NCBI GenBank assembly: GCA_963838035.1
Contig: CAWIPM010000009.1
Span: forward strand, 40,229-104,228
Reading direction: 5' to 3'
DNA length: 64,000 bases
From: an uncultured Solirubrobacterales bacterium
Lineage (GTDB): Bacteria; Actinomycetota; Thermoleophilia; Solirubrobacterales; 70-9
Below the pieces are notes generated by a model. It ran no database searches, was not told the origin of the DNA, and was given only the letters and a program-made list of their open reading frames with translations. The position numbers and the translations under genes were made by a program. Of this stretch, positions 47,993 to 63,648 are shown piece after piece (within the stretch, counting starts at the first letter, position 1; every line of letters begins with the position of its first letter).

Positions 47993-48754
47993 CTACCGGG
48001 GGGTGCAGGCCTTCTGGACATCGCCGGCGATCACGGTTTCGCCTACGTCGGCAAAGGTGAAGCGCCCGTGGGTTTCGAGCACGCCGTCCGAGCAGTGGGC
48101 TGACGTGTAGCTGCGCAGGCGCCCTCCGAAGCGGTAGCGCCTGCCGATCTTCGCGTCGATGTGGGTCAATGCGCCGAATCCGCCCGCGATCGGGGGGATG
48201 TCGATCGTGGCCCGGTAGCCGAAGCGGCCTCTCCGACGTTCGATCGGGACGACGATCGCGAAGGTCTGGGTTCCGGGGACGGTCGTCTGGGCATGGAGAA
48301 TCACCGTCATATTGCCGTTCTGCCGAACCCCGTTGAACACGGTCAGCGGCGAGGAGGCTTCGATCGAGAGCATGCCCACCTCGATCGCCGCGGAGACATG
48401 CCCGGTCCCGACGATCGCGCCTCGGCAGGCGCTGCGTGCCTCCTGCGGCGTGGCGTTCTCGACTCGTTCGAGCGGACAGGTCGGCAGCCCACGGGTGCTG
48501 ATCCGCCCGTCGCGGTCGAACTCGAGAATCGCCTGCTTGAGCGTGGGCGGAAACGAGCCGTCCCGCGTCCCGATGTCTGCGTGCCCCTGGAAATGGATCG
48601 GCGCGAAGGCGCGCCTCGGAAGCCGGCGCGGCTCGAATCCTCCGTCCGCGCGCAGAACCAGCGGCCCGTATTCGAGCACAGCTTCGGCCGCTGCCGTGCC
48701 GACCGCCAGGCAGCAGGTCACCAGAACCGCGATTGCCAGGGCTCGCTTCACCAT
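47993..48754 (-). CDS. secreted four-cysteine protein, paralog A of a three-member family in this window
   Basis: Signal peptide MVKRALAIAVLVTCCLAVGTAAAEA. Shares GLPTC, FNG, IPPIAGGFGALT, RSYTSAHC and C-terminal CTP motifs with 52237-53022 and 62030-62812. Confidence 0.6.
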   Translation of the reverse strand: MVKRALAIAVLVTCCLAVGTAAAEAVLEYGPLVLRADGGFEPRRLPRRAFAPIHFQGHADIGTRDGSFPPTLKQAILEFDRDGRISTRGLPTCPLERVENATPQEARSACRGAIVGTGHVSAAIEVGMLSIEASSPLTVFNGVRQNGNMTVILHAQTTVPGTQTFAIVVPIERRRGRFGYRATIDIPPIAGGFGALTHIDAKIGRRYRFGGRLRSYTSAHCSDGVLETHGRFTFADVGETVIAGDVQKACTPR

Positions 48755-48917
48755 CTCCCTCCGTAACAAGGCTAGCGCCGGCCCGATTCTGTCCGTCGCG
48801 GGCCGGCGCCTTCTCGACAGTCAGAGCGAAGTAAGCCCCGCCATCGGCGTGTTCCTTAACAGAACCTTCTGCGTTCGGGACTCCCTGTCGCCTCCGTAAC
48901 CGCCAAACTACCGGGTT

Positions 48918-51900
48918 GTGTTGCTAAGGAGGAGCAGGGGGCGCGACGGGAAGCTGCGCGAAAAGGGGGACCGCCGTGTCCCGCTGACGCTGCGTCACCC
49001 ACGCCGGGCGCTGGCCATCGCGGCGCTCCTGATCGCCGCTCTCGCTGCGTTTGGCTTCAGCCTCGAGGAAAAGCTCAGCCCGAGCACGCTGGACATCCCC
49101 GGCACCTCGGCCGAACACGCCAACAAGATGTTGACCGAACACTTCGGCAATACGGCGCTGTTCGCGATCCTGCTACAGGGGCCGTCGGCGTCGATCGACC
49201 AGCAGGGCCCTGAACTGGTGCGCACCCTGCGGCGTGACCCGAAGGTCTCCACCCTCTCTCCCTGGGACAAGGGGTCGGTCGGGCGATTGCGCCCCGGCCC
49301 CCGCCGCGCCCTGATTCTCGCCGACTTCCACGTCGGAACCGCGGAGGCGGTCAAGGAAAAGGTCCCGCTGCTCAACCGCATCCTGGAAGAAAGGATCAGC
49401 TCGCCGGTGCGGGCCACCCAGAGCGGTTTCGCCACCCTCACACGGTCGATCCAGGACGAGTCGATCACCGCCAGTGAGCGCGGCGAGCTGATCGCCATGC
49501 CGATCCTCCTGATCGTCCTCCTGCTCGTCTTCCGCTCACCGGTGGCGGCGGCGATCCCGCTCGGCTTCGGCGCCGTCTCGGTTCTGACCTCGCGCGGGCT
49601 GCTCGCGCTCCTCACCAACGTGTTCGGCGTCGACGCGCTGGCACTAACCGTCTGCTCGATGATGGGCCTTGCTCTGGGGGTCGACTACGCCCTCTTGATG
49701 GTCTCGCGCTTCCGCGAAGAGCTGGCAGAAGGCGCCGAGCCGATCGACGCCGCCTGGGCGACCCGGCGAACCGCCGGGCGGACCACGGTCTTCGCGGGCA
49801 GCACGCTGGTGCTGGCAATGGTCGTGGCGATGTTCGTCGTTCCCGGGGCGCTGCTCGCCTCGCTGGCGGCGACCCTGGCGCTGGTCGTCGTGCTGACCGT
49901 CACCGTCGCCACCGTGGTCGGCCCGCCGATCCTCGCTCTGCTCGGCCCCAACGTCGACCGCTGGCGAGTCGGCGCCGCGCCGGACGGCAGTCGCTCGCGG
50001 CTGATGACGTTTGTCTCCGCCGCCCTCCGCCGCCCCGCCCCCGTCGCCGCCGCGATCGGCGTCCTGGTCCTGGCCCTGGTGACGCCGGCGATCGGGCTCA
50101 AGACCGGGCCCTTCAGCGTCTCCCAGCTCCCCCACAACGACCCCGCCCGCCAGGACGCCGAACTGATCCAGAAGTCGATCGGGGCCGGCTTCGAAGCGCC
50201 CTACGTGATCGTCGCCACCACCAAGGACGGCACGATCACCGAACCCGATCGTCTCGCTGCCCTCACTCGGTGGCAACGCAAGATCGCGGCCACGCCCGGC
50301 GTCCAGACGGTGATCGGCCCGGCGCAGGTCTCGCACTCGGTCGCGCCGCTTCGCAGGTCCGGCACGGCGCTGATCTCCGAAAACGAATCGGGCCCGGCGG
50401 CCGGCCTCGGGCGCCTCGGCCACAGCCTGTCCCGCCTGTCTGGCGGCGTCCGCCAGCTGCGCGAAGGCCTCGCCGAAGCCAGCTCCGGCGCCGGCCTGCT
50501 CGCCGACGGCTCCGGCAAGGCCGGCAGCGGCGCGTTGACGATCTCGAACGGCCTCGCCAAGGTCAGCGCCGGCAGCGAAGAACTGGTCAGCGCGATCGAC
50601 GAATTCTCCGCCGGGTCAAAGAAACTGGCTGAAGGCCTGGAAAAAGCGTCGCTCGGCGGGCTCCAGCTGAAGGCAACGCTGCGCGAAACGCCGACCAATC
50701 TGCGCATCAACCCCCAACGCCGCTCCCGCAAAACGCAGAAGTCGCTCAACAAAGACGCCTACGAAACCATGCCGAAGCTGAACGGCGCCGCCGGCGCCGC
50801 CAACGAACAGCTGGCGACCGCGTACCAGCAGCTGCAGGCGATGACTTCGGGGAAAACGGACAGCCATTACGGGGCGGCGCTGGAAGCCGTCGAGAAGGCC
50901 TCGGCGGCGGTCAGCGGCACCAACCCCGCCAGCGGCCAGCCCTACGCCGCCGAATACGCGGGCCTGCCGGCCGAACTCGCGGCGCTTGAAAAACGGCTGC
51001 TCGTCGATCACGAAGAACTCGAACAGATCAGTCATCTCTTGGCGGGTGAAATCAGCAACCTGACCAAGCTGGCCGGGACCGCGGCGGAACTCTCCGAAGG
51101 CCTCGAAAAACTGGAAGAAGGCGGCAAGGAACTCGCCGACGAATCGGCCCGCCTGGCCAAGTCCGTCGAACCGCTGCCGAGCAACCTCGGACGGCTCTAC
51201 GGCGGCGCCGTCTCCCTGGTCGGCGGCATATCCCAGCTCACCGGCGGCGCCACGGCGCTGCAGGAAAACCTCGCCTCCGGATTCCAGCGGGCCGCCCCGA
51301 TCCAGACGGGATTGCGGCGAGCCAGCGTCCGGGTGATCGCCAACAACGCGAAGCTGCAGCGGCGCCTCAGCGGGGTGCGCCGCCAGACGCCCGGAATCTT
51401 CGACTCTGGCTACTTCGTCCTCTCGGCCCTCGACGGCGCGCCGCCGCGCTCGCGCGAAAACGCCTCGGAAGTGGTCGACCTGAACGGCGGCGGCCAGGCT
51501 GCGTCGATGCTGATCTTCTCCCGCTACGGCTTCAACTCTCCCGGCTCGATCGCCCTCAACAAGCGCCTCGACGCCGACGCCGCGGCGCTCGGCAAGGAAG
51601 CCGACGCGACCACCGGCGTCGCCGGCGGGGCCGCCACCCTCAACACATACAGTCAGGTCACCAGGGCCAGGATCCCACTCGTGATCGCGGCAATCACCAT
51701 CGCCACCTTCCTGGTCATGCTCCTGGTCCTGCGGGCCCTGCCGCTGGCGGCGATCGCGGTGGCGCTCAACCTGATCACCGTCGGCGTCGCCTTCGGCGTG
51801 CTGACGCTGCTCTTCAACGTGCCCGAAGGCTGGCCACTGGGCGGGCGCACCTACGTCGACGCGGTGGGGATGACGATGATCTTCGGCGTCGTCTTCGGGC

Positions 51901-52232
51901 TCTCGATCGACTACGCGGTATTCCTGCTCGTGCGGATGCGCGAGCACTACGACCGCGAGGGCGACAACGCCGCCGCGATCGAGTTCGGCCTCGAAAAGAC
52001 CGCGCGGGTGATCACCGGCGCCGCGGTGATCATGATGGCCGTCTTCATCGCCTACGCCGGGGCGCCGATCGCGACGGTCAGCCAGTTGGGGATCGGGCTG
52101 ACCGTCGCGGTGTTGCTGGATGCCACCGTGGTTCGCATCGTCTTCCTACCGGCTTTGATGCTGTTGATCGGCGACAGGGTCTGGTGGGTGCCGCGCTGGC
52201 TGGAGCGCGTCCTTCCCAAGTTGAACGTCTGA
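48918..52232 (+). CDS. MMPL/RND-family transporter with about 330-aa heptad-repeat insertion in the second periplasmic domain
   Basis: Two 6-helix bundles (e.g. GVDYALLMVSRFREE and GLSIDYAVFLLVRMREH) and a long xxxLxxG-type repeat region. The start is uncertain: an AAGGAGG lies inside the ORF at 48926-48932. Confidence 0.85.
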   Translation: MLLRRSRGRDGKLREKGDRRVPLTLRHPRRALAIAALLIAALAAFGFSLEEKLSPSTLDIPGTSAEHANKMLTEHFGNTALFAILLQGPSASIDQQGPELVRTLRRDPKVSTLSPWDKGSVGRLRPGPRRALILADFHVGTAEAVKEKVPLLNRILEERISSPVRATQSGFATLTRSIQDESITASERGELIAMPILLIVLLLVFRSPVAAAIPLGFGAVSVLTSRGLLALLTNVFGVDALALTVCSMMGLALGVDYALLMVSRFREELAEGAEPIDAAWATRRTAGRTTVFAGSTLVLAMVVAMFVVPGALLASLAATLALVVVLTVTVATVVGPPILALLGPNVDRWRVGAAPDGSRSRLMTFVSAALRRPAPVAAAIGVLVLALVTPAIGLKTGPFSVSQLPHNDPARQDAELIQKSIGAGFEAPYVIVATTKDGTITEPDRLAALTRWQRKIAATPGVQTVIGPAQVSHSVAPLRRSGTALISENESGPAAGLGRLGHSLSRLSGGVRQLREGLAEASSGAGLLADGSGKAGSGALTISNGLAKVSAGSEELVSAIDEFSAGSKKLAEGLEKASLGGLQLKATLRETPTNLRINPQRRSRKTQKSLNKDAYETMPKLNGAAGAANEQLATAYQQLQAMTSGKTDSHYGAALEAVEKASAAVSGTNPASGQPYAAEYAGLPAELAALEKRLLVDHEELEQISHLLAGEISNLTKLAGTAAELSEGLEKLEEGGKELADESARLAKSVEPLPSNLGRLYGGAVSLVGGISQLTGGATALQENLASGFQRAAPIQTGLRRASVRVIANNAKLQRRLSGVRRQTPGIFDSGYFVLSALDGAPPRSRENASEVVDLNGGGQAASMLIFSRYGFNSPGSIALNKRLDADAAALGKEADATTGVAGGAATLNTYSQVTRARIPLVIAAITIATFLVMLLVLRALPLAAIAVALNLITVGVAFGVLTLLFNVPEGWPLGGRTYVDAVGMTMIFGVVFGLSIDYAVFLLVRMREHYDREGDNAAAIEFGLEKTARVITGAAVIMMAVFIAYAGAPIATVSQLGIGLTVAVLLDATVVRIVFLPALMLLIGDRVWWVPRWLERVLPKLNV

Positions 52233-52236
52233 CCCG

Positions 52237-53022
52237 TTACGGCTTCTTCTTGCACCCCTGCTTCGAATACGCGGTCAGCGTTACGTTGTCTTTGAAGGTG
52301 AAGGCGCCGCGTGCCTTCAGCGGTGACTTCTTGCACTCGGCAATGACGTAGCTGCGCTGCTTGCCCTTGTACTTGAACTTCTTGGAGATCGTGGTTTCGA
52401 AATCGGTCAACGCGCCGGTGCCGCCTGCGATCAACGGGATGTTGATGTTCAGGCGAGGGCCGTAGCCTTCCTTGTTGAGGCCGACGACGGTGCCTTCCAG
52501 CACGAGCGTCACCTGAACCGGCGATTCGCCGAAGGTGTGAAGGAGGACGACCGGGACGTTGCCCTGGGGCGGGCCGTTGAAGGCGGTCACGGTCTGGTTC
52601 TGGACGAAGACCTGGGAGCCGACCGCCAGCAGCGCCGACGCCTTGCCGCCGCCGATCTTCGCCTTGCCGCATTCGCGCAGCGCGATCTGGGTCGAGGTGT
52701 TCTGGATCTTGCCTGGATTGCAGGTCGGGACGCCCTTGGCGAAGATCTTGACGTTCTTGTCGAAGTCGACCACCGCATTGATCGCCGGCGACGGCACGCC
52801 GTTGGCGGACGTGGTCGACGTCGTTTTCGTCGTGACCCTGAGTGTCGCGGGGGTCGGCTTGCTCTTCGAGAGCTTCTTTGGCGAGAGCTGCACGCCGATT
52901 GCCTGCGTGTTCCCGTCGCTGCCTACGACGGTGGGGCCCAATTGGCCCGCGAGGGCTGTGGACGCGATGATCGCGGTCACGGCTATCGCGGAGCCCACAA
53001 TCAGAGTCGGACGTTTGCGCAT
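52237..53022 (-). CDS. secreted four-cysteine protein, paralog B
   Basis: Signal peptide MRKRPTLIVGSAIAVTAIIASTALA. Motifs GVPTC, FNG, IPLIAGGTGALT, RSYVIAEC and a C-terminal C. AGGAG lies 6 nt upstream of the ATG at 53022. Confidence 0.6.
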   Translation of the reverse strand: MRKRPTLIVGSAIAVTAIIASTALAGQLGPTVVGSDGNTQAIGVQLSPKKLSKSKPTPATLRVTTKTTSTTSANGVPSPAINAVVDFDKNVKIFAKGVPTCNPGKIQNTSTQIALRECGKAKIGGGKASALLAVGSQVFVQNQTVTAFNGPPQGNVPVVLLHTFGESPVQVTLVLEGTVVGLNKEGYGPRLNINIPLIAGGTGALTDFETTISKKFKYKGKQRSYVIAECKKSPLKARGAFTFKDNVTLTAYSKQGCKKKP

Positions 53023-53208
53023 GGCATCTCCTGGTTCGAAAACATTGGCCAAGCGCCTCCCAGTGCAATAACCGTGCTGCACCTCCAGAGTAGCGCGTTG
53101 ACTTCCAGTTAAGTCCCTGTTCCAGGCACGCGTGACGGCTGGTCGCTTGGATACGATTCCGGCGCCGTTCTACCGGGTCGGAGGCCGGGGAACGACAAGC
53201 GACGACCC

Positions 53209-54612
53209 GTGGCTGCCAAACCCTTAGGCGAGGAGAAAAGCACGGCGCAAAGCCGGGGGATCACCCCAGCGCGGATTGCCGTGATCGCGGGGCTGGCGGC
53301 GGCCGTCATCGCCCTCGCCGTCATCCTCTTCAGCGGCGACGGCGAACACCAATACAACCTCCTCTTCCAGAACGCGGGCCAGCTCGTCCCGGAAAACCAG
53401 GTCCTGATCGGCGGGTCGCCCGTCGGCTCGGTAGACAGCATCGACCTGACCGCCAACAACCTCGCCGAAGTCCACGTCACCGTCGATCAGCAGCTGCATG
53501 AAGGCTCCACCGCGGTGATCCGCGCCACCTCGCTCTCGGGGGTCGCCAACCACTACGTCTCGATCAGCCCGGGCCCCAACAGCAACCCGCCACTCGGCGA
53601 AGGCTCCACGCTGGGCCTCGCCGCGACCACCACCCCGGTCGACATCGACCAGCTCTTCAACACCTTTCCGAACCCGGTGCGCCGCGCCCTCGGCCAGTTC
53701 GTCCGCGGCAACGCGGCCATCTACGCCGGCCGCGGCAAGGACGCGAACCAGACCTACAAGTACTTCGGGCCGGGGCTCAACCGCACCGCAGCCTTCGTCC
53801 ACGAACTGAATGCGGACCAGAGGCTCTTCGAGCGCTTCGTCGTCAGCTCCAGCAAGCTGGCGACCGCGGTCTCCCAGCGCGGCGAACAGCTCTCAAGCGC
53901 GATCTCCAACGCCAGCACCGCATTCGGGGCGATTGCCGCCCAGAACACCGCCCTCGACCGCAGCCTGCGCCTGCTGCCGCCGTTCCTGCGCCAGAGCAAC
54001 ACCACCTTCGTCAACCTTCGTGCCGCCCTCGACGACGTCGAACCGCTCTTCGACACGGCGAAGTCGGCGACCAAGAACCTCGCCCCGTTCCTGGCCGAAC
54101 TCCGCCCCGTCGTCTCCAAAGCCGTCCCGGTCTTCAAGAACCTCCGCCTCACCGTGCGCCGTCCCGGAAGCGCCAATGACGCCGCCGAGCTTCTCGCCGC
54201 GCTGCCGGCGGTGCAGGAGCGGGCCTCCAAGGCCTTCCCCCACTCCGAAGACGCGATCGCAGCCTTCCTGCCCAATCTCGCCTTCGCCCGCGCCTACACG
54301 CCGGACATCTTCAACGGGTTCGCGAAGGTCGGCCAGGTCGCGGGCTACTACGACGGCAACGGCAACTACGTCAGGGCGGCGACGGCCGACCTCAACCTCT
54401 TCAACTACAACAGCGGCAGCGGCGTCCTTGAACCGATCGCGCCGAGCGAACAGTTCGACGTCTTCGGGCCTGAAGCCGGTCCGCTGCGACGCTGCCCGGG
54501 CGGCGCAGTCCAGCCCGCCCCCGACGGTTCCAACCCCTTCGTCGACCCGCCCTGGAGCGGCGCTCCGACCTCGTCCGAATGCAACCCGGCCGATGTGCCT
54601 CCTGGACCATGA
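53209..54612 (+). CDS. Mce/MlaD-domain protein 1 of 6
   Basis: N-terminal helix IAVIAGLAAAVIALAVILF, then an MlaD-type segment (VLIGGSPVGSVDSIDL...VIRATSLSGVANHYVSISPGP) and a long helical C-terminal region. Confidence 0.85.
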   Translation: MAAKPLGEEKSTAQSRGITPARIAVIAGLAAAVIALAVILFSGDGEHQYNLLFQNAGQLVPENQVLIGGSPVGSVDSIDLTANNLAEVHVTVDQQLHEGSTAVIRATSLSGVANHYVSISPGPNSNPPLGEGSTLGLAATTTPVDIDQLFNTFPNPVRRALGQFVRGNAAIYAGRGKDANQTYKYFGPGLNRTAAFVHELNADQRLFERFVVSSSKLATAVSQRGEQLSSAISNASTAFGAIAAQNTALDRSLRLLPPFLRQSNTTFVNLRAALDDVEPLFDTAKSATKNLAPFLAELRPVVSKAVPVFKNLRLTVRRPGSANDAAELLAALPAVQERASKAFPHSEDAIAAFLPNLAFARAYTPDIFNGFAKVGQVAGYYDGNGNYVRAATADLNLFNYNSGSGVLEPIAPSEQFDVFGPEAGPLRRCPGGAVQPAPDGSNPFVDPPWSGAPTSSECNPADVPPGP

Positions 54613-56068
54613 GAAGGAAGCTGATCACAACCGCCCTGGTCGTCGCCTTCGTCGTCGTGGTCGTTCTGGTCGTCTCCGGCGGGGGCGGCGGTAACGGGTA
54701 CGTCGTCCGCGCTGCCTTCGACAGCGGCGGCTTCATGGTCCAGGGCGAGCAGGTTCGGGTGGCCGGGGCGAACGTCGGGGAAATCAAGTCGGTCAGCGTT
54801 TCGATGCCGGGCGAACTCGACAGCTACAAGGACGGCAAGCTGCAGGCCGTTCCGGGCAAAGCGCTGATCGAGATGGAAATCACCGATCCCGGCTTCCAGG
54901 ACTTTCGCAGCGACGCCAGCTGCGAGATCCGCCCGCAGTCGCTGATCGGTGAGAAGTTCGTCGACTGCCGACCCGACCCTGCCGCGCGCCCCTGGATCGC
55001 CGCCGGCACCTCCTCTGAAGAAGATCCCCTCCGGTCAGCCGGGCGCCGGCGAGTACCTGCTGCCGTTGGAGAACAACAGCACCAGTGTCGACCCCGATCT
55101 GATCAACAACATCCAATCCCTGCCCTACGCGCAGCGCTTCCGCCTCATTCTCAACGAACTCGGCGCCGGTCTGGCCGGGCGCGGCAAGCGACATCGAAGA
55201 AGTCGTCGAGCGCGCCAACCCCGTGCTGCGCGAAACCGACCGTCTCTTCGCAATCCTCGCCGCCCAGCGCCACCAGCTCGCTCAGCTCGCCAGCGACTCC
55301 GAGGAAATCCTGGGGCCGCTCTCGCGCGAGCGCGCCCACGTCGCCGGCTTCCTCGCCAACTCCGGCGCCGCCGCGCAGGCCAGCTCCGAACGCGGTCCCG
55401 AGCTGGAAGCCTCGCTGCGCAAGTTCCCCCGCTTCCTGCGCGAGTTCCGGCTGACGATGCGAAGCCTGCAGGGCTTCTCCGACGCGGGGACGCCGGTCTT
55501 CTCCTACCTCGACAAGGCTGCCCCCTCGCTGACCGACGCGACCAAGGAGCTGGCCCCGTTCTCCGAAGCCTCGACGGTGGCGCTGAAGAGCCTCGGCCAG
55601 ACCGGCGAAGTCGCCGGGCCGCTGCTGCGCGAAGCCGACCCGATCGTCCGCAAGACGACCGAACTTTCCAAGACCGGCGTCGCCCCGACCACGAATCTCG
55701 CCAAGTTCCTGGTCAACACGAAGAAGACCGGCGGTTGGGGCCGGTTGGTCAAATTGATCTACAACACGACTGCGGCGATCAACGGCTTCGACCAGTACGG
55801 CCACTTCGCCAGGACGCTGGTGACTCTCACCAATTGCGTCGACTACGAAGTCCATCCGGGATGTGGCGGCAGCGCCAACTTCACCGGCCCCGGGGCCGCC
55901 ACCTCGGCGACGACCAATCCGGCCCTCCTGTATCGAAAGCTCGAGCGCGACCTGGCCCGCCAGTCCGGAGGAACCGCCGCCTCGTCCTCGTCCTCGTCGC
56001 CGAGCGGCCCCGGCCAGAGCAAGACCGGCGGCACCGCCCCGCTCCTCAACTACCTCCTGGGCCCATGA
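54609..56068 (+). pseudogene. Mce/MlaD-domain protein 2 of 6, coding sequence spread over three frames (two extra bases)
   Basis: The length of 1460 nt equals 3n+2. Frame 1 reads MRRKLITTALVV...IRPQSLIGEKFVDC. Frame 2 reads ...EYLLPLENNSTSVDPDLINNIQSLPYAQRFRLILNELGAGLAGRG. Frame 3 reads DIEEVVERANPVLRETDRLF... and runs to the stop at 56068. Confidence 0.7.
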
Positions 56069-57495
56069 AGAGTCGCAGCGGACTGACAGGAGTCGCGAGC
56101 AGCCCGGTGCTGGTCGGCGCGGTCACGGTCCTGGTCGTGATCGTCGCCGTCTTCCTCGCCTACAACGCCAACAACGGCCTCCCATTCGTCTCCACCTACA
56201 ACCTCAAGGCCCAGCTCCCCAATGCCGACGCGCTGGTCAAGGGCAACGAGGTGCGCATCGGCGGCGTCCGAGTCGGCATCGTCAAGTCGGTGGTTCCAGT
56301 CCAGCTCGGCAACGGCCGTGTCGCCGCCCAGCTGTCGCTCAGCCTCGACAAGAGCGTCGAGCCGCTTCCGGTCGACTCGACGATGATCGTCCGGCCGAAG
56401 TCGGCGCTCGGGCTCAAGTACCTGCAGGTGACCCCCGGAAACTCGTCGCAGGGCTTTGCCGCGGGCGAAACGATCCCCCCCTCCGCCGCCCGTCCCGAAC
56501 CGGTCGACATCGACCAGTTCTTCGACATGTTCGACGAAAAGACGCGCAAAGCGATCCAGCGCAATGAGGCGGGCTTCGGCAACGCGCTGGCCGGCCGCGG
56601 CCCGCAGCTGAACGAAGCGTTCGGCGCGCTTCGCCGCCTGGTCGAAAGCAGCCAGCCGGTGCTGCGGACGATCGTCGCACCGAGCACCGACTTCGGTGGC
56701 TTCTGGAGAGCGCTGGAGGACCTCTCGGCCACCGTTGCACCGGTCGCCGAGACGCAGGCGAGCCTCTTCGTCGCCCTCGACCGCACCTTCGCCGCCTTCG
56801 CCCGCGTCTCCCGCCCATTCATCCAGGAAACGATCTCCAAGAGCCCCTCGACTCTCGACACCGCCAACGCCGACCTGCCGACGCTGCGGCCCTTCCTGCA
56901 CGACTCCGAACAGTTCTTCGTTGCCCTCAAGCCCGGCGCCAAGGCGCTGGCCGAAACCTCGCCGACGATCGCCGCCGCCCTGCACGCCGGCGTTCCTGCC
57001 CTCAACAAATCACCGATCCTCAACGCCCAGCTGGTGCCGACCGCGAAGGCGCTGCTCGCCTTCCAGAGCGCTCCCGGCGTCTTCAACGGGCTCGATCTGC
57101 TGATCGACACGAACAAGACCCTCGGCCCGGCGATCAAGTTCATCGGCCCGGCGCAGACGACCTGCAACTACCTGACTCTCGCCTTCAGGAATCTCGCCAG
57201 CGCGACCGAAGGGAGCGACGGGCTGGGCAACTGGCTCAACTTCATCTCCTTCACCCCCCCCGAAGGGCCGAACAACGAGGGCAGCCCGGCCTCGGCGCCG
57301 GCCAACGGAGGCGAAGTCAAAAACCACCTCCATTACAACCCCTACCCGAACACCGCTTCCCCGGGGCAGCCGAAGACGTGCGAAGCGGGCAACGTCCGTT
57401 ACCTGAGCGGCCAGACCGTGATCGGCCCATCCCCGGGGAATCCGCACACCACCACCACCTCGGGCCAGCTGGAAGGGCAGGGGGGTTCCAAGTGA
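56065..57495 (+). CDS. Mce/MlaD-domain protein 3 of 6
   Basis: Starts at the ATG at 56065 with an ATGA overlap. The sequence runs MKSRSGLTGVASSPVLVGAVTVLVVIVAVF...VRIGGVRVGIVKSV...IVRPKSALGLKYLQVTPG. It is embedded in the chimeric 848-aa track ORF. Confidence 0.85.
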   Translation: MKSRSGLTGVASSPVLVGAVTVLVVIVAVFLAYNANNGLPFVSTYNLKAQLPNADALVKGNEVRIGGVRVGIVKSVVPVQLGNGRVAAQLSLSLDKSVEPLPVDSTMIVRPKSALGLKYLQVTPGNSSQGFAAGETIPPSAARPEPVDIDQFFDMFDEKTRKAIQRNEAGFGNALAGRGPQLNEAFGALRRLVESSQPVLRTIVAPSTDFGGFWRALEDLSATVAPVAETQASLFVALDRTFAAFARVSRPFIQETISKSPSTLDTANADLPTLRPFLHDSEQFFVALKPGAKALAETSPTIAAALHAGVPALNKSPILNAQLVPTAKALLAFQSAPGVFNGLDLLIDTNKTLGPAIKFIGPAQTTCNYLTLAFRNLASATEGSDGLGNWLNFISFTPPEGPNNEGSPASAPANGGEVKNHLHYNPYPNTASPGQPKTCEAGNVRYLSGQTVIGPSPGNPHTTTTSGQLEGQGGSK

Positions 57496-59001
57496 GCCGT
57501 CTTCCCGAGCGCGACATCAGGCAGGGGGCCACCAACCGCCGCTTCAAGTGGCGACCCAGCAACGCGATGATCGCGGTGATCTTCATCGTCGTCTTCACGG
57601 TCGGTCCCTACCTGGCCTTCACCGGCCATGTGCCCTTCACCAGCTACGGCTACGAGCTGAAGGCGACCTTCTCCAACTCGGCCAACATCGCGCTCAACTC
57701 GCCGGTGCGGATCGCCGGCGTCGAAGTCGGCCAGGTGATCTCGGCCGAACGCGACGGCGACAACACCACGGTCACCTTCACGGTCAGCGAATCCGGGACG
57801 GCCGGTCCACACCGACGCCTTCGCCGCGATCAGGCCGCGGATCTTCCTCGAGGGCAACTTCTTCGTCGATCTGGACCCCGGCAGCCCGAGCGCGCCGGAC
57901 ATGGCCAGCGGCGCGACGATCCCGGTCAGCCACACCTCCACCGCGGTCCAGCTCGACCAGATCCTCACCGCGCTGCAGTCGCCGGTGCGGGCCGACCTCA
58001 GCCGCCTGCTGGAGAGCTACGGTGAAGCGCTTACGCATAAGCCGACGGCGGCCGAAGACGCGACACAGCTCCCCGAGGTGAAAGGCAAGACGGGCGCCGA
58101 GGGGCTGAACGGCGCCTTCAAGTACGGCGGCCCGGCCGGTCGTTACAGCGCCCAGGTCAGCAATGCTCTCCTCGGCACCCAGCCGCACGATCTCTCGCGC
58201 CTGATCGCCGGCGCCGGGCGCACCTTCGGCGCCTTCGCCAGCCGCGAGAGCGATCTCCAGGGCCTGATCGTCAACTTCGACACCTTCACCGGCGCCCTCG
58301 CCGCCCAATCGGCCAATCTCACGGCGACCGTCCACCGCCTCGCCCCGGCTCTGGCGGCCGGCCGCGCCTCGCTGGTCAGCCTCAACCGCACGCTGCCGCC
58401 GCTGCGCACCTATGCGATCGAGCTGACGCCCGCGGTGGCCGAGCTGCCGGGGCTGATCGCCGCCTCGAAACCATGGCTCGAACAGGCGCGCCCGCTGCTC
58501 TCCGGCAAGGAGGGCGGCGGCGTGGCCAAGCTGCTCGCCGAGCTGACGCCGGGCCTCGCCGGCGCCGCCCAGGCGGGCAAGGCGAACGCCCTGCCTCAAC
58601 TCAACCGGATCAGCCTCTGCACCACCAAGGTGCTGGTCCCGACCGGCAATCAGACGATCAACGATCGCTTCAGCACCGGCGGCCCCAATTACCGCGAGTT
58701 CCTCTTCTACCTCGCCAACTTCTCCGGTCAGGCCGAGAACTTCGACGGAAACGGCCCCTACCTGCGCATCCAGGGCGGTGGTGGGGAAAAGCTGGTGGAA
58801 GAGTCGAATCTGAAAGCCCCGCTCATCTCCGACCAGAAGCAGTTCGCCCACTCGGCCGTCTCTCCGCTCGGCACCCAGCCCCAGCTCGGTGGACGCCCCC
58901 CGTTGAAGCCGGAAGTGGACTGCTTCGACAACCCCGTCCCCGACGTGAACGCCGGCCTCGGCCAGGTCGGAGCGCCCAGCCCCGTGGCGGTGAACCCATG
59001 A
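57492..59001 (+). pseudogene. Mce/MlaD-domain protein 4 of 6, one extra base near 57795-57799
   Basis: The length of 1510 nt equals 3n+1. Frame 1 reads VSRLPERD...VRIAGVEVGQVISAERDGDNTTVTFTVSESG. The next frame reads RPVHTDAFAAIRPRIFLEGNFFVDLDPG... and runs to the stop at 59001. Confidence 0.7.
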
Positions 59002-60407
59002 GCGAGCGTGAATCCCAGGTGGGCCGCCTCAAGCACTTCCGCCTGGCGCTGGCCCGGCAGGCGCGCGGCCACGGCAAAGACACGGTCGCGATCGTCGTCC
59101 TCACCTTCCTCGGCATCGTGATGATGCTGGGGATCTTCGTTCAGCAGAAAGCCTCGCTGCCGTCCTGGATCCCCGTGGTCGGCGAAAGCTTCGACCACAT
59201 CACCGCCGAGTTCACCACCGCCCAGGCGGTCACCCCGGGGCAGGGCCAGGCCGTCGACATCGCCGGCATCCAGGTCGGCAAGATCACCTCCGTCGACCTC
59301 GAAGAAGGCCACGCCGTCGTGGGCATGGACATCGAGCCCAAGTACATGAAGCTGATCCACCCCGACGCGACCCTGTTGCTGCGGCCGAAGACCAACCTCA
59401 ACGACATGGTGATCGAGGTCTCGCCTGGAACCGGCCGGGGGCATATCGAAAGCGGCGACAACATCCCCCTCTCCCGCACCCAACCGAATGTCAACCTGGA
59501 CGCCTTCCTCGCCACCCTCGACACCGACACCCAGCGCTACCTGCAGCTGCTGGTGGCCGGCGGCGCGCAGGGAATCGGCGGCCGTGGCCGCCAGCTTTCC
59601 GGCGTCTTCCGCCGGCTTGAGCCCTTCTCCCATTACCTGGCCAAACTCAATGGCGCCGTCGCCAAACGCCATGTCGCGCTTGCCCGCGTTATCCACGACT
59701 TCGGCCTGCTCACCACCGAACTCGGCCGCCACGACGCCGAGATCAAGCGCTTCGTCACCTCCTCCGACGCGGCCCTCGGCAACTTCGCCAACCAGCAACA
59801 ATCGATTCAGGAAGCGCTGCGCGAGTTCCCGGCGACCCTGCAGGCCGCTCGAGCGGGCTTCGCCAGCGCCGACCGCTTCTCGACCGCGGCCCGCCCGGCG
59901 CTCTTCGGCCTGATTCCCCAGGCCCAGGCGCTCTCGCCGGCCTTCACCGCGACCGAGCGCTTCTTCAAGCAGACGACCGCTCCGATCCGCGACCAGATCC
60001 GGCCCTTCACCCGTCAGATACGCCCGGTGCTGACCCACACGGCCGAAGGCTCTTCTTCCTTGAAGAAGACGGTCACCGGCTTCGGCAACTCGCTCGGGGC
60101 GTTCAACTCGTTCCTCAACGAGCTCGCCTACAAGCCGAAGGGCTCGAAGCAGAGCTACCTCTTCTACCTGCCGTGGCTTAACCACGACCTCAACGCGACC
60201 TTCAACCTCCAGGACGGGGGCGGGCCCGTTGGCCGGGGACTCGTCATGGTCACCTGCAACTCGTCGACCCTCGCCTTCGGGTTCGCCGGCGTCAGACCCT
60301 TCCTGAAGACGCTGCTCGATGCCGCCCGGGTTCCCCGGCCGCATGAACTTCCAGAAGTGCACGATCCCGAAAACCCTCAGGCCACCTGCGGACCGGAAAG
60401 CAAATGA
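58998..60407 (+). CDS. Mce/MlaD-domain protein 5 of 6
   Basis: Starts at the ATG at 58998 with an ATGA overlap. TM helix VAIVVLTFLGIVMMLGIFV, then VDIAGIQVGKITSV...LLRPKTNLNDMVIEVSPG. Confidence 0.85.
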   Translation: MSERESQVGRLKHFRLALARQARGHGKDTVAIVVLTFLGIVMMLGIFVQQKASLPSWIPVVGESFDHITAEFTTAQAVTPGQGQAVDIAGIQVGKITSVDLEEGHAVVGMDIEPKYMKLIHPDATLLLRPKTNLNDMVIEVSPGTGRGHIESGDNIPLSRTQPNVNLDAFLATLDTDTQRYLQLLVAGGAQGIGGRGRQLSGVFRRLEPFSHYLAKLNGAVAKRHVALARVIHDFGLLTTELGRHDAEIKRFVTSSDAALGNFANQQQSIQEALREFPATLQAARAGFASADRFSTAARPALFGLIPQAQALSPAFTATERFFKQTTAPIRDQIRPFTRQIRPVLTHTAEGSSSLKKTVTGFGNSLGAFNSFLNELAYKPKGSKQSYLFYLPWLNHDLNATFNLQDGGGPVGRGLVMVTCNSSTLAFGFAGVRPFLKTLLDAARVPRPHELPEVHDPENPQATCGPESK

Positions 60408-61960
60408 GCAAGCGCGCGCCAAGCACAACCCAACTCCTGGTCATCGTCGGCTTCGCGCTGTCCTGCTTCGCCATCCTGCTCTTCCTCTGGGTCACGTTCG
60501 GCGGGCCGACTCCTTTCAAGGCGAAGCCCTACCAGGTCAAGATCCCCTTCAACGAGGCGACCCAGCTGGCGGAACAGTCAGACGTGCGGATCTCCGGCGT
60601 CTCGGTCGGCAAGGTCCAGAACATCGCGCTTGCCCCGAACGGCAAGCAGGCCTTGGCGACGATCGACGTCGACAATAAGTACGGGCCGCTGCCCAGGTCG
60701 ACCAGGGCGATCCTTCGCACCAAGACGCTGCTTGGCGAGACCTACGTCGAACTGACCCCCGGCAACCGCAACGGGCCGAAGCTGGCGGACGGCGCAACGC
60801 TGCCGACGGCGAACGTGGCGCAGTCGGTCCAGCTCGACGAGATCTTCCGCACCTTCGACGCGCGGACGCGCGCGGCCTTCCAGACCTGGATGCAGGAATC
60901 CGCGGTCGCGATCGCGGGTCGCGGCCAGGACTTCTCCAACGCGCTGGGCGAGTTCGAACCGACCTTCACCGAATTCGACAAGCTGTTCCGCGTCCTCGAC
61001 ACCCAGCGCCTCGCGGTCAGCCAGCTCTTCCGCAACGGCGCCGTCAGCCTACGGGCTCTGCGCGGCGGCGAAGGCCAGCTGGCGAGCCTGATCCGCAACT
61101 CCAACGCTGTCTTCACCACCACCGGGCAGCGCGATCGAGACATCGAAGCGCTCTTCCGCGCCTTCCCGACCTTCCTCGACGAGTCGAAGGCGACGCTGAC
61201 CCGGCTCAAAGCCTTCGCGCTCGACACCGACCCGACCGTGCGCCAGCTCGTCCCCGCCGCCGAACAGCTCTCGCCGACCCTGATCGCCTTCTCGCGCCTT
61301 GCTCCGCAGGCGAAGGGATTCTTCGAAGGCCTCGAAACGGTGATCGCCGGCGCTCCGACCGGCTTCCCAGCCGTCCGCAAGCTCTTCCGCGACCAGTTCC
61401 CGCCGCTGCTGCGGGCGCTTGACCCATTCCTCCGCAACCTCAACCCGATCCTCACCGGCCTCGGGCTCTACAAGCATGAGATCACGGGCGTGCTTGGCAA
61501 CGTCGCGGCGGCCACCAACGCGGTATTGCCGACCGAAAACTCAAATGGTGAAAAGTTCCACTACCTGCGGGCGATGGGGCCGCTGAACCCGGAATCGCTG
61601 GCCACATTCAACCGGCGCCTCACGATCAACCGCAACAGCGCCTACAGCCCACCGCTCTGGGCGAAGGACCTGGCGGGCGGGCTGCCCAGCTTCGAGACCA
61701 GGCAGTGCAGCTCGGGCATCACGGCCTCGCTCGATCCCGAAACTCCGAACAACCCCTCCTTCATCGCACGCACCAAGAAGGGCGAAGCGAAAGAAGCCGT
61801 CGAATTCTTCGAAAACCTGAAGAAGTACGCGTTCGCAGAACAGACCGACTCCAGCTCGATCCCCGCCCCCGGCTGCGCCCAGCAGGCTCCGTTCAGCCCG
61901 ATCGGCAAGCCCGGCTCCGCGACGACCTACCAGCACACCTTCGCCCAGCAGGGCGAATAG
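60404..61960 (+). CDS. Mce/MlaD-domain protein 6 of 6
   Basis: ATGA overlap with the preceding gene. TM helix LLVIVGFALSCFAILLFLWV, then VRISGVSVGKVQNI...ILRTKTLLGETYVELTPG. Confidence 0.85.
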   Translation: MSKRAPSTTQLLVIVGFALSCFAILLFLWVTFGGPTPFKAKPYQVKIPFNEATQLAEQSDVRISGVSVGKVQNIALAPNGKQALATIDVDNKYGPLPRSTRAILRTKTLLGETYVELTPGNRNGPKLADGATLPTANVAQSVQLDEIFRTFDARTRAAFQTWMQESAVAIAGRGQDFSNALGEFEPTFTEFDKLFRVLDTQRLAVSQLFRNGAVSLRALRGGEGQLASLIRNSNAVFTTTGQRDRDIEALFRAFPTFLDESKATLTRLKAFALDTDPTVRQLVPAAEQLSPTLIAFSRLAPQAKGFFEGLETVIAGAPTGFPAVRKLFRDQFPPLLRALDPFLRNLNPILTGLGLYKHEITGVLGNVAAATNAVLPTENSNGEKFHYLRAMGPLNPESLATFNRRLTINRNSAYSPPLWAKDLAGGLPSFETRQCSSGITASLDPETPNNPSFIARTKKGEAKEAVEFFENLKKYAFAEQTDSSSIPAPGCAQQAPFSPIGKPGSATTYQHTFAQQGE

Positions 61961-61988
61961 AAAGGGCGGCCCGAAGGCCGCCCTTTCT
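61959..61988. terminator. 13-bp GC-rich hairpin, candidate bidirectional intrinsic terminator between the mce operon and paralog C
   Basis: AGAAAGGGCGGCC-cgaa-GGCCGCCCTTTCT forms a perfect stem. It starts inside the mce6 stop codon and has only a short T-run on either side. Confidence 0.6.
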
Positions 61989-62029
61989 CCCCTTGCCCGT
62001 GCTGAGGAAAGACCGCTGGGTAAGCCGCC

Positions 62030-62812
62030 CTAGCCCTTCGGCGTGCAGGGCACGACGATCGCGCCGTGGAGCCTGTTGTTGTTCCTGAAGACGGCTTCAC
62101 CGGTGGCGTTGAGGTGCCCGTCTGGGCACTTGGCGAGGAAGTAGCTCTGCTTCTTGCCCTTGTTGGTGAACAGCCGGTGGAGGGTGAGGCTGAAGCTGGA
62201 CACCGAGCCCTGCCCTCCGACGATGACCGGGACCGAGGCGACCGCATGCTCTCCGTAGCGGCCTTTGTGCTCCTTTTTGATTTTCACCGTGGTGACCACC
62301 GCCGACGGCGCCGGCACCGAGACGAAGGCGTGGATGAAGATCGTCGTCACCCCGCCCTTGATACCGCCGTTGAAGGCGAGCAGCTTGCTGGTCACGGGGA
62401 TCGGCGCCTGTTCTGCGAAGTAGATCACCAGGTGCGTCGTGCCCTGGCCGACGATGGAGTCCTTGCAGACCGCTTCCGCGCTCTTGGAGTCCCGCGCCTC
62501 CAGCTGGCCCGCCTTACAGGTCGCGAGGCCCTGTGGGTTGACAGCTCCGTTCTTGTCGACGTCGGTGATGACTTCCTTCAGCGCCGGCGTCGGGGAGCCG
62601 TCGGTCGTGGTGAGGCCGGCGCTCGCAGTTAGAGAGACCGGCGCAAGCGTCTTCTTCGGCAGCGCCTTCGGTGAGATCTTGCCGCTGAAGCTGAGCTGCA
62701 GGTTCCCCAGTCGCACGGTGGCTTTGGAGCCGTTGCCTGCTACTGCCGCCGCCGCTGCGACGAGCGCGACTACTGCGCCAAGTGCGAATACCAACGTCAA
62801 ACGTTTGCGCAT
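62030..62812 (-). CDS. secreted four-cysteine protein, paralog C
   Basis: Signal peptide MRKRLTLVFALGAVVALVAAAAAVA. Motifs GLATC, FNG, VPVIVGGQGSVS, QSYFLAKC and C-terminal CTP. The ATG at 62812 is preferred to the track start at 62899. Confidence 0.6.
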   Translation of the reverse strand: MRKRLTLVFALGAVVALVAAAAAVAGNGSKATVRLGNLQLSFSGKISPKALPKKTLAPVSLTASAGLTTTDGSPTPALKEVITDVDKNGAVNPQGLATCKAGQLEARDSKSAEAVCKDSIVGQGTTHLVIYFAEQAPIPVTSKLLAFNGGIKGGVTTIFIHAFVSVPAPSAVVTTVKIKKEHKGRYGEHAVASVPVIVGGQGSVSSFSLTLHRLFTNKGKKQSYFLAKCPDGHLNATGEAVFRNNNRLHGAIVVPCTPKG

Positions 62813-62958
62813 GTCCCTAAATCTCTCCTTTGAAGCCGGCCGTCCAGCGCCGAGCGGTTGAATGCTTGTCATCCCTCCAAGCGACAAAAGTAGCAACATC
62901 AGCCATCGAATAAACCCGGCAATTCACAAAAAAGAGCGCCTTAACAAGGGCAGAAGAG

Positions 62959-63648
62959 CTAGCTCTCGAGCATTGAGAGCCGAATCCGCTCGCGCTCCGC
63001 GGCGGCGCGCTCCGCACCCAGGAAGGGCAGGGCGACCCAGAACATCAGGTCGGGCAGGCGGCTCGGCAGCCGCGCCGCCGACCCATGCAGGATCTCGCTG
63101 TAGAGCAGCTCGTTTATCCCTCCGGCAAGCGAGAGGGACGTGATCCCCGGCAGCTCGACTGAGGTTTCGGCCCGTCCGGCATCGAGAAACCCGGTGAACT
63201 GCCGCAGCGCGGCATCGCGGCGGGCCAGGGCTTTGGGGCCTGCCGCAAGCACCTCGACGATTGCAAACCGGCCCTCGTCCGGGTGCTCGGCGAGATGGTC
63301 GAGCAGTGCTCCGAGGCCCGCGGCAACACGCTCCGCCCAGGGCGCTCCGGGCTTCGACTCGAAGCCACGCGCGGTGTCGCCGATCAGGTTGTCGAGCAGC
63401 ACGTCATAGGCGGCCAGGAAACAGTCCTCCTTGCTCGTGAACAGCTCGTAGAACGTCTTTCTGGACACCCCGGCGACGGTGATCACGTCAACCACCCGCG
63501 TATCCGGGTAGCCGCGCTCGGAGACGACCTCGACCATCGCCTGGTGGATGCGGTTGCGCTGGGATTCCGCCACGGCCTCCCGCGGTAACCCGTGCCGGCC
63601 CCTGGGCAGCCGCTCGCCAGACCTAGCTGGGCGTCTACCTGTAGCCAC
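62959..63648 (-). CDS. TetR/AcrR family transcriptional regulator
   Basis: The N-terminal HTH is RNRIHQAMVEVVSERGYPDTRVVDVITVAGVSRKTFYELFTSKEDCF. Confidence 0.85.
   Translation of the reverse strand: MATGRRPARSGERLPRGRHGLPREAVAESQRNRIHQAMVEVVSERGYPDTRVVDVITVAGVSRKTFYELFTSKEDCFLAAYDVLLDNLIGDTARGFESKPGAPWAERVAAGLGALLDHLAEHPDEGRFAIVEVLAAGPKALARRDAALRQFTGFLDAGRAETSVELPGITSLSLAGGINELLYSEILHGSAARLPSRLPDLMFWVALPFLGAERAAAERERIRLSMLES

Follow-up and report, generated by a model that had tools for sequence, protein, structure and literature searches.

A family of predicted secreted four-cysteine proteins encoded beside an MMPL transporter subfamily and mce genes in Solirubrobacterales

Extracytoplasmic accessory proteins decide where MMPL and Mce systems deliver or collect lipids, and the mycobacterial ones (MmpS, LprG/LppX and Mas/LucA) stand next to drug targets. 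Among the exported proteins that act alongside envelope lipid transporters are LprG with Rv1410c, LppX with MmpL7, and LpqN with MmpL3/MmpL11. MmpS (PF05423), the partner of mycobacterial MmpL4/MmpL5, has about 140 aa and an uncleaved N-terminal membrane anchor, and its gene is located upstream of mmpL on the same strand. The Mas domain is a C-terminal region of about 160 aa with the order alpha1-4 beta1-4; mas genes usually come in pairs, downstream of the mce genes and sharing their strand, and in M. paratuberculosis mas pairs were reported on the opposite strand at both sides of the mce5 operon (Casali and Riley 2007, PMC1810536). The PqiC/MlaA-type lipoprotein partners of Gram-negative MCE systems are thought to cap or dock the MCE tunnel (PMC13631591). 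Here we analysed a 64,000-nt stretch of contig CAWIPM010000009.1 from an uncultured Solirubrobacterales bacterium (GCA_963838035.1), hereafter the window, in which three genes, A, B and C, lie around an MMPL gene and a cluster of six mce genes. They belong to a large and fully unannotated protein family, here called F, which has a confidently predicted fold and, within a major order of soil actinobacteria, has remained tied to one MMPL subfamily.

An earlier note on this DNA had placed the three genes on the minus strand, and all of them were found in the list of open reading frames (ORFs) with the expected lengths and with a coding-type GC content at third codon positions of 0.83-0.85, the pattern of real genes at the window GC of about 68%. 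Gene A (47993..48754, minus strand, 253 aa) is divergent from the MMPL gene; gene B (52237..53022, minus strand, 261 aa) is convergent with the MMPL gene across a 4-bp gap and divergent from mce1; gene C (62030..62812, minus strand, 260 aa) is located downstream of a TetR gene on the same strand. Shine-Dalgarno-like sequences were found 5-10 nt 5' of the start ATG of each gene. The N-termini are composed of a basic n-region, a hydrophobic h-region and an AxA-type site (AAA/E, ALA/G and AVA/G, the slash marking the cleavage), and the signal peptide of A reads MVKRALAIAVLVTCCLAVGTAAA followed by EA. The AlphaFold2 models described below show low confidence across the N-terminal 19-26 residues, which correspond to the signal-peptide region. 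Neither a twin-arginine motif nor a canonical lipobox was found in A, B or C; the signal peptides of B and C contain no Cys and that of A contains a non-canonical LVTC. The F proteins are thus probably exported and cleaved, in agreement with the Sec signal peptides proposed in the earlier note. The same note had pointed to a 13-nt string common to B and C across their start codons; the string is present, but it consists of just the ATG-CGC-AAA-CGT codons of MRKR and carries no extra information.

Judged by sequence, A, B and C are true paralogs. Formal pairwise alignment, set beforehand as the test on which this relationship would stand or fall, gave significant similarity for every pair, with 30% identity by BLASTP between A and B (E 3e-31), B and C (E 7e-29) and A and C (E 1e-37). 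MAFFT lined up GLPTC, a second Cys 17 aa on, FNG, IPxIAGGxG, SYxxAxC and a C-terminal Cys, so that every block earlier listed as shared by the three proteins aligns. The four Cys (positions 93, 110, 221 and 250 in A; 99, 116, 229 and 256 in C) proved to be conserved as well: they are invariant in 119/119 aligned database homologs, and of 212 family genes recovered from related genomes 201 contain all four, while the extracted matches of the remaining 11 are cut off at the C-terminal end. Only two proteins, both truncated-looking, were without both Cys3 and Cys4. The family can be defined by the pattern G-x3-C ... C-x5-G-x-G ... SY-x2-A-x-C ... C together with a Sec signal peptide and an all-beta domain of about 230 aa, and A, B and C all satisfy it.

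A word-indexed search revealed at least 1,927 clusters of F proteins at 90% identity, and an exhaustive hidden Markov model search with a cutoff of E<=1e-3 gave, at 50% identity, at least 2,348 clusters, 509 of them with E<=1e-30. All matches with source names were called 'hypothetical protein'. Exact-match look-ups of the A and B proteins of the window returned nothing, or one 1.2-kb contig only. The organisms named were Solirubrobacterales, Conexibacteraceae, Thermoleophilia or unclassified Actinomycetota metagenome-assembled genomes, with three exceptions on contigs of 2-4 kb that are probably binning errors; by these sequence matches, F appears as a large unannotated family restricted to Solirubrobacterales (class Thermoleophilia). 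In Pfam and NCBIfam searches with E up to 10, A, B and C gave no match beyond noise (OsmE and UrcA, E>0.1), and no meaningful match to PDB sequences was found by phmmer or by hmmsearch with a profile of 119 sequences (inhibin at E 0.13), consistent with the first reading, which did not recognise the family. Some members contain more than one unit: five are tandem F-F proteins (P0123, P0141, P0186, P0208 and P0255), P0194 and P0261 have long extracellular N-terminal extensions, and in P0227 a Big_1/Invasin_D3 Ig-like (immunoglobulin-like) domain is fused to F, which was the only fusion to a recognised domain found. The tandems and the Ig-like fusion hint at an oligomeric or surface-exposed use of the fold.

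A scan of GTDB species representatives for the genomic context of the family gave 79 loci, and profile searches with the window proteins revealed a strongly conserved mce-MMPL block, counted in 57 loci (individual loci are denoted below by L and a number). The conserved order in the block is a polyprenyl synthase gene, a small hypothetical gene, tatC, hyp47, zero to three tandem F genes, MMPL on the opposite strand, an F gene in most blocks, and six mce genes. At least one F gene is divergent upstream of MMPL in 52 of the 57 blocks, and all such copies are on the opposite strand in 50 of these 52. Between MMPL and mce1, an F gene was found in 47 blocks, always on the opposite strand; the other 10 contain no B-type gene there and MMPL runs straight into mce1 with a gap of less than 600 bp. 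The number of tandem copies upstream of MMPL was zero in 5 loci, one in 10, two in 7 and three in 35. Clustering at about 40% identity separated four types, namely A (the distal tandem copy), the middle copy, C-like and B. Orthologs of A (45-69% identity) are the MMPL-distal copy within the tandem array, and the middle-copy type is absent from the window, whose layout is a reduced version of the usual block. That each transport unit is flanked by one paralog, as the window alone had suggested, therefore does not hold as a rule, with 0-3 copies upstream of MMPL and B missing in 10/57 blocks. The association with MMPL itself was borne out, both by the divergent F/MMPL and F/mce1 pairs of the 57 genomes and by a separate operon.

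This operon belongs to the D-type subfamily, which comprises at least 120 clusters at >=58% identity to the query. Its genes are co-directional, in the order MMPL (about 1,020 aa), X (about 165 aa) and F, and their reading frames abut or overlap. The MMPL protein of the operon is a paralog of that of the window (49% identity) and contains the same long variable extracytoplasmic insertion. The MMPL-X-F operon was found in at least three different downstream contexts, and also in L040, L056, L057, L071 and L130; because it recurs in different surroundings, the pairing of F with MMPL has survived duplication and rearrangement. We conclude that the F-MMPL association is robust but not universal. 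X represents a second unannotated secreted family of about 150-165 aa, helical and with two Cys (L161:6513-7001, L071:9412-9909 and L040:14491-15048). In L121, L124, L128 and L146, members of this family also lie downstream of C-type genes, at about 0.6 kb, and many C-type genes have a convergent X gene; no X homolog was found in the window. No Pfam match was obtained for X, for the further partner genes Y and Z, or for the local hypothetical genes. Paralogs of about 900 aa, likewise with no Pfam match, flank the MMPL-X-F operon (L161:673-3399 and L161:7925-10633) and were also observed a few kb from C-type genes (L140:14188-16872, L126:13663-16764 and L100:16279-18948).

C-type genes behave differently. 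Orthologs of C (46-60% identity) were sampled in 80 metagenome loci by a scan with five C-type sequences. In 43 of 51 loci the C-type gene directly follows a TetR gene of the same strand, purA usually adjoining, and purA, TetR and F form a conserved triad in many metagenome contigs (L081-L160; 62030-63997 in the window), with mce genes nearby or not. Among the 16 C-type loci with at least 8 kb on both sides, mce or MMPL genes were found within 2.5 kb in three and at 2.5-10 kb in four. Where mce genes are near, at least three arrangements exist: convergent, as in the window; six mce genes, TetR and F on one strand, as in L051, L095, L116 and L145; and mce genes several kb upstream. C is thus a TetR-coupled gene with a facultative link to mce, and the idea that it is a paralog flanking the mce cluster was not upheld, the constant partner being the upstream TetR gene (43/51) and mce or MMPL genes lying within 10 kb in 7/16. 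A further subfamily, here L029-type, has its F gene directly after a saccharopine-dehydrogenase-like reductase gene and facing MpaB/Lcp-like oxygenase and FtsH-like genes; the reductase and the oxygenase are lipid-type enzymes, with whose genes F was listed as co-directional, and were counted for a link to lipids.

AlphaFold2 was run on C and A with family alignments, and secondary structure was assigned by DSSP. The models of C (pLDDT 88.1, pTM 0.84) and A (pLDDT 92.4, pTM 0.88) are both all-beta: they contain about 18 strands, of which several reach 10-17 residues, and only two short helices. A short helical hairpin lies between Cys1 and Cys2. Mean-field direct-coupling analysis (DCA) was performed on 680 family sequences (effective number, Meff, 453). 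The top couplings formed antiparallel ladders in the order b15-b4-b12-b7-b8-b9-b10-b11-b5-b16-b17-b1-b2, with cross-sheet contacts b5-b12, b7-b10, b8-b11 and b4-b16, and the helical hairpin packed onto b8-b10. Coevolution thus supports the AlphaFold2 models. It also indicates one interdigitated domain rather than two tandem Ig domains, since the last long strand is paired with the first strand. Mature F (about 230 aa) is predicted to be one compact all-beta domain, in which a strongly curled antiparallel sheet folds back to give a two-layer sandwich or barrel. The couplings next to the Cys residues (103-115, 230-258 and 232-258) suggest that disulfides are probably formed between Cys1 and Cys2, which would close the helical hairpin, and between Cys3 and Cys4, which would staple the C-terminal hairpin; the pairing is read from neighbouring couplings, as invariant Cys cannot covary.

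Foldseek searches gave nothing at E<=1e-3 against PDB with the models of A and C, nor against BFVD with one model. The best PDB matches, all non-significant, were arrestins, MSCRAMM adhesin sandwiches, AvmM and TTHA1873, with query TM-scores of 0.23-0.34. The predicted fold thus appears to have no significant relative among solved structures. A reading as two tandem Ig domains or as an arrestin-like protein was rejected, because the DCA ladders connect the N- and C-terminal halves; membership in the arrestin-like or DEv-IgG (MSCRAMM) folds would need a global TM-score of about 0.5 or more and two separate sandwich lobes, whereas the ladders show one domain. When all four types, A, B, C and D, are compared, the columns that never vary hold P, L, G, C, A, C, G, G, F, P, P, G, C and C. 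Apart from Gly, Pro and Cys, these are all hydrophobic residues, a pattern that makes a binding or scaffolding role more likely than an enzymatic one.

Compared with the described systems, F resembles several and matches none. Like MmpS, it is a small extracytoplasmic beta-rich protein encoded beside MMPL genes, with the pairing kept in paralogous copies; unlike MmpS, it has about 230 aa in the mature form, a cleavable signal peptide and four Cys, and its gene is divergent from or downstream of MMPL. MmpS itself was rejected as the family of A, B and C, which gave no Pfam match at E up to 10 and, with 253-261 aa, contain AxA sites; MmpS structures were also missing from the 50 matches that Foldseek listed for each model. 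LprG, LppX, LprA and LprF as well as LpqN/Mtc28 are, like F, exported, of about 200-230 aa, largely beta and associated with lipid transporters, and they serve here as the working model for F. The LprG/LppX-type proteins are lipoproteins with a lipobox, whereas F has no lipobox and a different strand topology. Membership in the LppX/LprG/LprA/LprF group, marked by a lipobox Cys and a half-barrel-plus-helices fold, was accordingly discarded, with no Pfam or NCBIfam match and no canonical lipobox; the 50 best PDB matches that Foldseek listed for each model included no structure of this group or of LpqN/Mtc28.

The Mas/Mam proteins share with F that they are accessory proteins whose genes cluster with six-gene mce operons, and the layout of mas and mce5 in M. 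paratuberculosis resembles that of F, although the proteins are unrelated in sequence. The earlier view that F is not like Mas/Mam was confirmed: F is all-beta with a cleavable signal peptide against the alpha1-4 beta1-4 order of Mas, and has about 18 strands, only two short helices and four Cys. Gene order also differs, as F genes are opposite to mce in the block and the window, and on one strand with mce in the four C-type loci named above. PqiC/MlaA-type proteins are, like F, small exported partners encoded by MCE-domain genes, but they are lipoproteins of diderms, and the strongest linkage of F is to MMPL rather than to MCE genes; the PqiC-like or ABC_trans_aux family was rejected too, with no Pfam match at E up to 10 and no lipobox. 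Nor are A, B and C MCE/MlaD (PF02470) proteins, since none of them matches this family and all six neighbouring mce genes do. By analogy, F may have a role comparable to that of MmpS, LprG/LppX, LpqN, Mas or PqiC, with homology to none of them.

We tentatively propose that F proteins may act as accessory binders or adaptors for MMPL-mediated, possibly Mce-linked, lipid traffic outside the membrane, a reading to which we give slightly less than an even chance. It is proposed because the genes are persistently linked to one MMPL subfamily and, through MMPL, to the mce hexad. Each F protein would be exported via a Sec-type signal peptide, cleaved at the AxA-type site, and would fold as one disulfide-braced all-beta domain with a short helical hairpin on top. 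F genes have stayed by the MMPL subfamily with the long extracytoplasmic insertion through duplication and rearrangement, and in the main block they also adjoin the six-gene mce cluster behind that MMPL. As an extracytoplasmic partner, F might hold or hand over hydrophobic cargo, or dock on the extracytoplasmic stalk of the transporter. The C-type copy would probably be expressed with its own TetR regulator and be part of the cluster only in some genomes. The family may serve as a handle on envelope lipid transport in Thermoleophilia, as a new Pfam domain and as a target for structural work.

Several points weigh against this proposal. F has no lipobox, transmembrane anchor or sortase signal, a difficulty for a freely secreted protein that would have to stay near a transporter in a monoderm. 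Nine of the 16 well-flanked C-type loci contain no mce or MMPL gene within 8-10 kb, and the L029-type loci (L029, L030, L032, L033, L034 and L037) contain no transporter within 10 kb. The two MMPL-F arrangements use paralogous MMPLs and are not fully independent, so they may go back to one ancestral pairing. The main block is located in an origin-proximal and highly syntenic region, by tatC, menaquinone, haem and purA genes, and part of its conservation could be inherited gene order. Finally, the cross-sheet DCA contacts suggest a packed core and not a large cavity.

Some of the same observations would suit a cell-surface or cell-wall protein, structural or adhesin-like, with no direct part in transport, whose adjacency to MMPL and mce genes came from inherited gene order in an origin-proximal neighbourhood of envelope genes, or from shared regulation. 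The weak best Foldseek matches were beta-sandwich adhesin domains (ClfA, ACE19, Sgo0707 and RrgA) besides the arrestins, and the Big_1/Invasin_D3 fusion, the long extracellular extensions and the tandem F-F proteins fit a surface location, as does the absence of a membrane anchor. C-type and L029-type members are often away from transporters, and housekeeping genes flank the main block. However, those Foldseek matches are all non-significant with TM<=0.34; the MMPL-X-F operon with its overlapping frames recurs in unrelated surroundings; and 47-52 of 57 genomes have kept the divergent F/MMPL and F/mce1 pairs at protein identities of 45-70%. We regard a surface role of this kind as the main alternative, though rather less likely than the accessory role.

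Another possibility is that F proteins are released scavengers, or 'lipophores', which would capture hydrophobic nutrients (for instance sterols, fatty acids or isoprenoids) beyond the wall and pass them on at the tip of the Mce importer, in the manner of the haemophores of haem importers. Proteins that are freely secreted, disulfide-stabilised and anchorless would fit such a task, and variable copy number with rapid divergence of paralogs would suit different ligands. The TetR-coupled expression of C-type genes is typical of ligand-induced uptake genes, and B-type genes and mce1 have a common promoter region. Yet it is MMPL, in most cases an exporter, and not mce to which F is linked most tightly and most portably; many C-type members lie at a distance from mce; and DCA suggests a packed sandwich core. 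Taken together, release as scavengers seems improbable. A secreted enzyme modifying envelope lipids or the cell wall would be very improbable: the Asn of the FNG motif and a His (N148 and H161 in C) are invariant within the A, B and C types and the weak Foldseek matches include the beta-sandwich enzymes AvmM (E 2.2e-3) and neprosin, but with the D-type included Cys is the only invariant polar residue, the Asn being nearly invariant and the His falling outside even the 90%-conserved set (it is Gln in the one D-type sequence that was read), no enzyme family matched in Pfam or NCBIfam, and the TM-score to the enzyme matches was <=0.28.

Returning to the accessory role in MMPL-mediated traffic, the arrangement of the mce genes bears on how far it may extend to Mce. 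The six mce genes were never preceded by yrbE-type permease genes in the window, in L086, L088, L145, L007, L009, L011 and L018, or in others; mce1 follows MMPL directly in 10/57 blocks and is separated from it by a single divergent F gene in 47/57. When multi-transmembrane ORFs of 200-340 aa were screened across about 2.1 Mb of related loci, no YrbE/MlaE-like permease was found, though such genes may lie elsewhere in the genomes, as may mceG; this screen found TatC, cytochrome b, YidC, MFS proteins and a few ORFs with no Pfam match. Because mce follows MMPL, no YrbE-like gene was found in this sample and F tracks that MMPL subfamily, it might be speculated that the Mce hexad of Solirubrobacterales works with the adjacent long-stalked MMPL (RND) pump instead of a YrbE/MceG ATP-binding cassette transporter, with F proteins as soluble adaptors in the wall zone of such a hybrid trans-envelope lipid machine. 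We consider this a long shot. If true at the whole-genome level, an mce hexad behind MMPL with no yrbE could change the view of how MCE tunnels are energised.

In the window, the flanking genes are largely those described before: the MMPL transporter, the six mce genes and the TetR regulator were confirmed by Pfam, but mce2 contains two frameshifts and mce4 one. The MMPL gene (48918..52232, plus strand, 1104 aa) encodes an RND-type transporter (PF03176, E 7e-52) and is separated from A by a divergent intergenic region of 163 bp (48755..48917). Its insertion at about residues 480-800 is long, variable and extracytoplasmic, rich in Gly, Leu and Ala repeats, and differs in length between paralogs, with 81 gap positions against the MMPL of L161. 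The insertion may be a coiled-coil stalk, comparable to those reported for MmpL10 and MmpL4/5.

A divergent intergenic region of 186 bp (53023..53208) separates B from the mce cluster, which is on the plus strand. mce1 (53209..54612) contains an MlaD domain and a Mce4_CUP1-like region and is 74% identical to mce1 of L051. It is followed by mce2 (54609..56068), mce3 (56065..57495), mce4 (57492..59001), mce5 (58998..60407) and mce6 (60404..61960), and all six genes encode MlaD domains. Compared with the orthologous operon of L051, which is intact (66-85% identity), frame changes are located near 54973 and 55178 in mce2 and near 57790 in mce4, all at short C or G runs; they could be either assembly indels or signs of a decaying mce operon. 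No other broken gene was noticed in the 64 kb, which were not rigorously screened for them. The TetR-family regulator (62959..63648, minus strand, Pfam TetR_N) is the conserved upstream partner of C-type genes.

Positions 1-37000 of the window resemble an origin-proximal actinobacterial region, with gyrA- and ParA-like N-termini and a PASTA-kinase/FtsW/PP2C-type cluster. Genes are also located there in the usual positions of dnaA, dnaN, recF and gyrB, as judged by N-terminal sequences only, and YidC was recognised by Pfam. Background synteny is high near the origin, and arguments from gene neighbourhood should therefore be taken with caution.

Consensus scans for promoters and terminators were uninformative in this GC-rich DNA, and no palindrome that might serve as a shared TetR operator was found in the three promoter regions. 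A 12-mer, TKGTCGCTTGGA, occurs at 53140-53151 (plus strand) and 62876-62887 (minus strand), its only two mismatch-free copies in the window, 58-75 nt upstream of the starts of mce1 and C and oriented alike with respect to the two genes. As related loci do not conserve it, this 12-mer was dropped as a shared operator, and its occurrence is probably due to chance. Between the convergent mce6 and C, at 61962..61985, we found a GC-rich hairpin, AAGGGCGGCC-CGAA-GGCCGCCCTT, a perfect 10-bp inverted repeat with a 4-nt loop, which is probably a bidirectional terminator.

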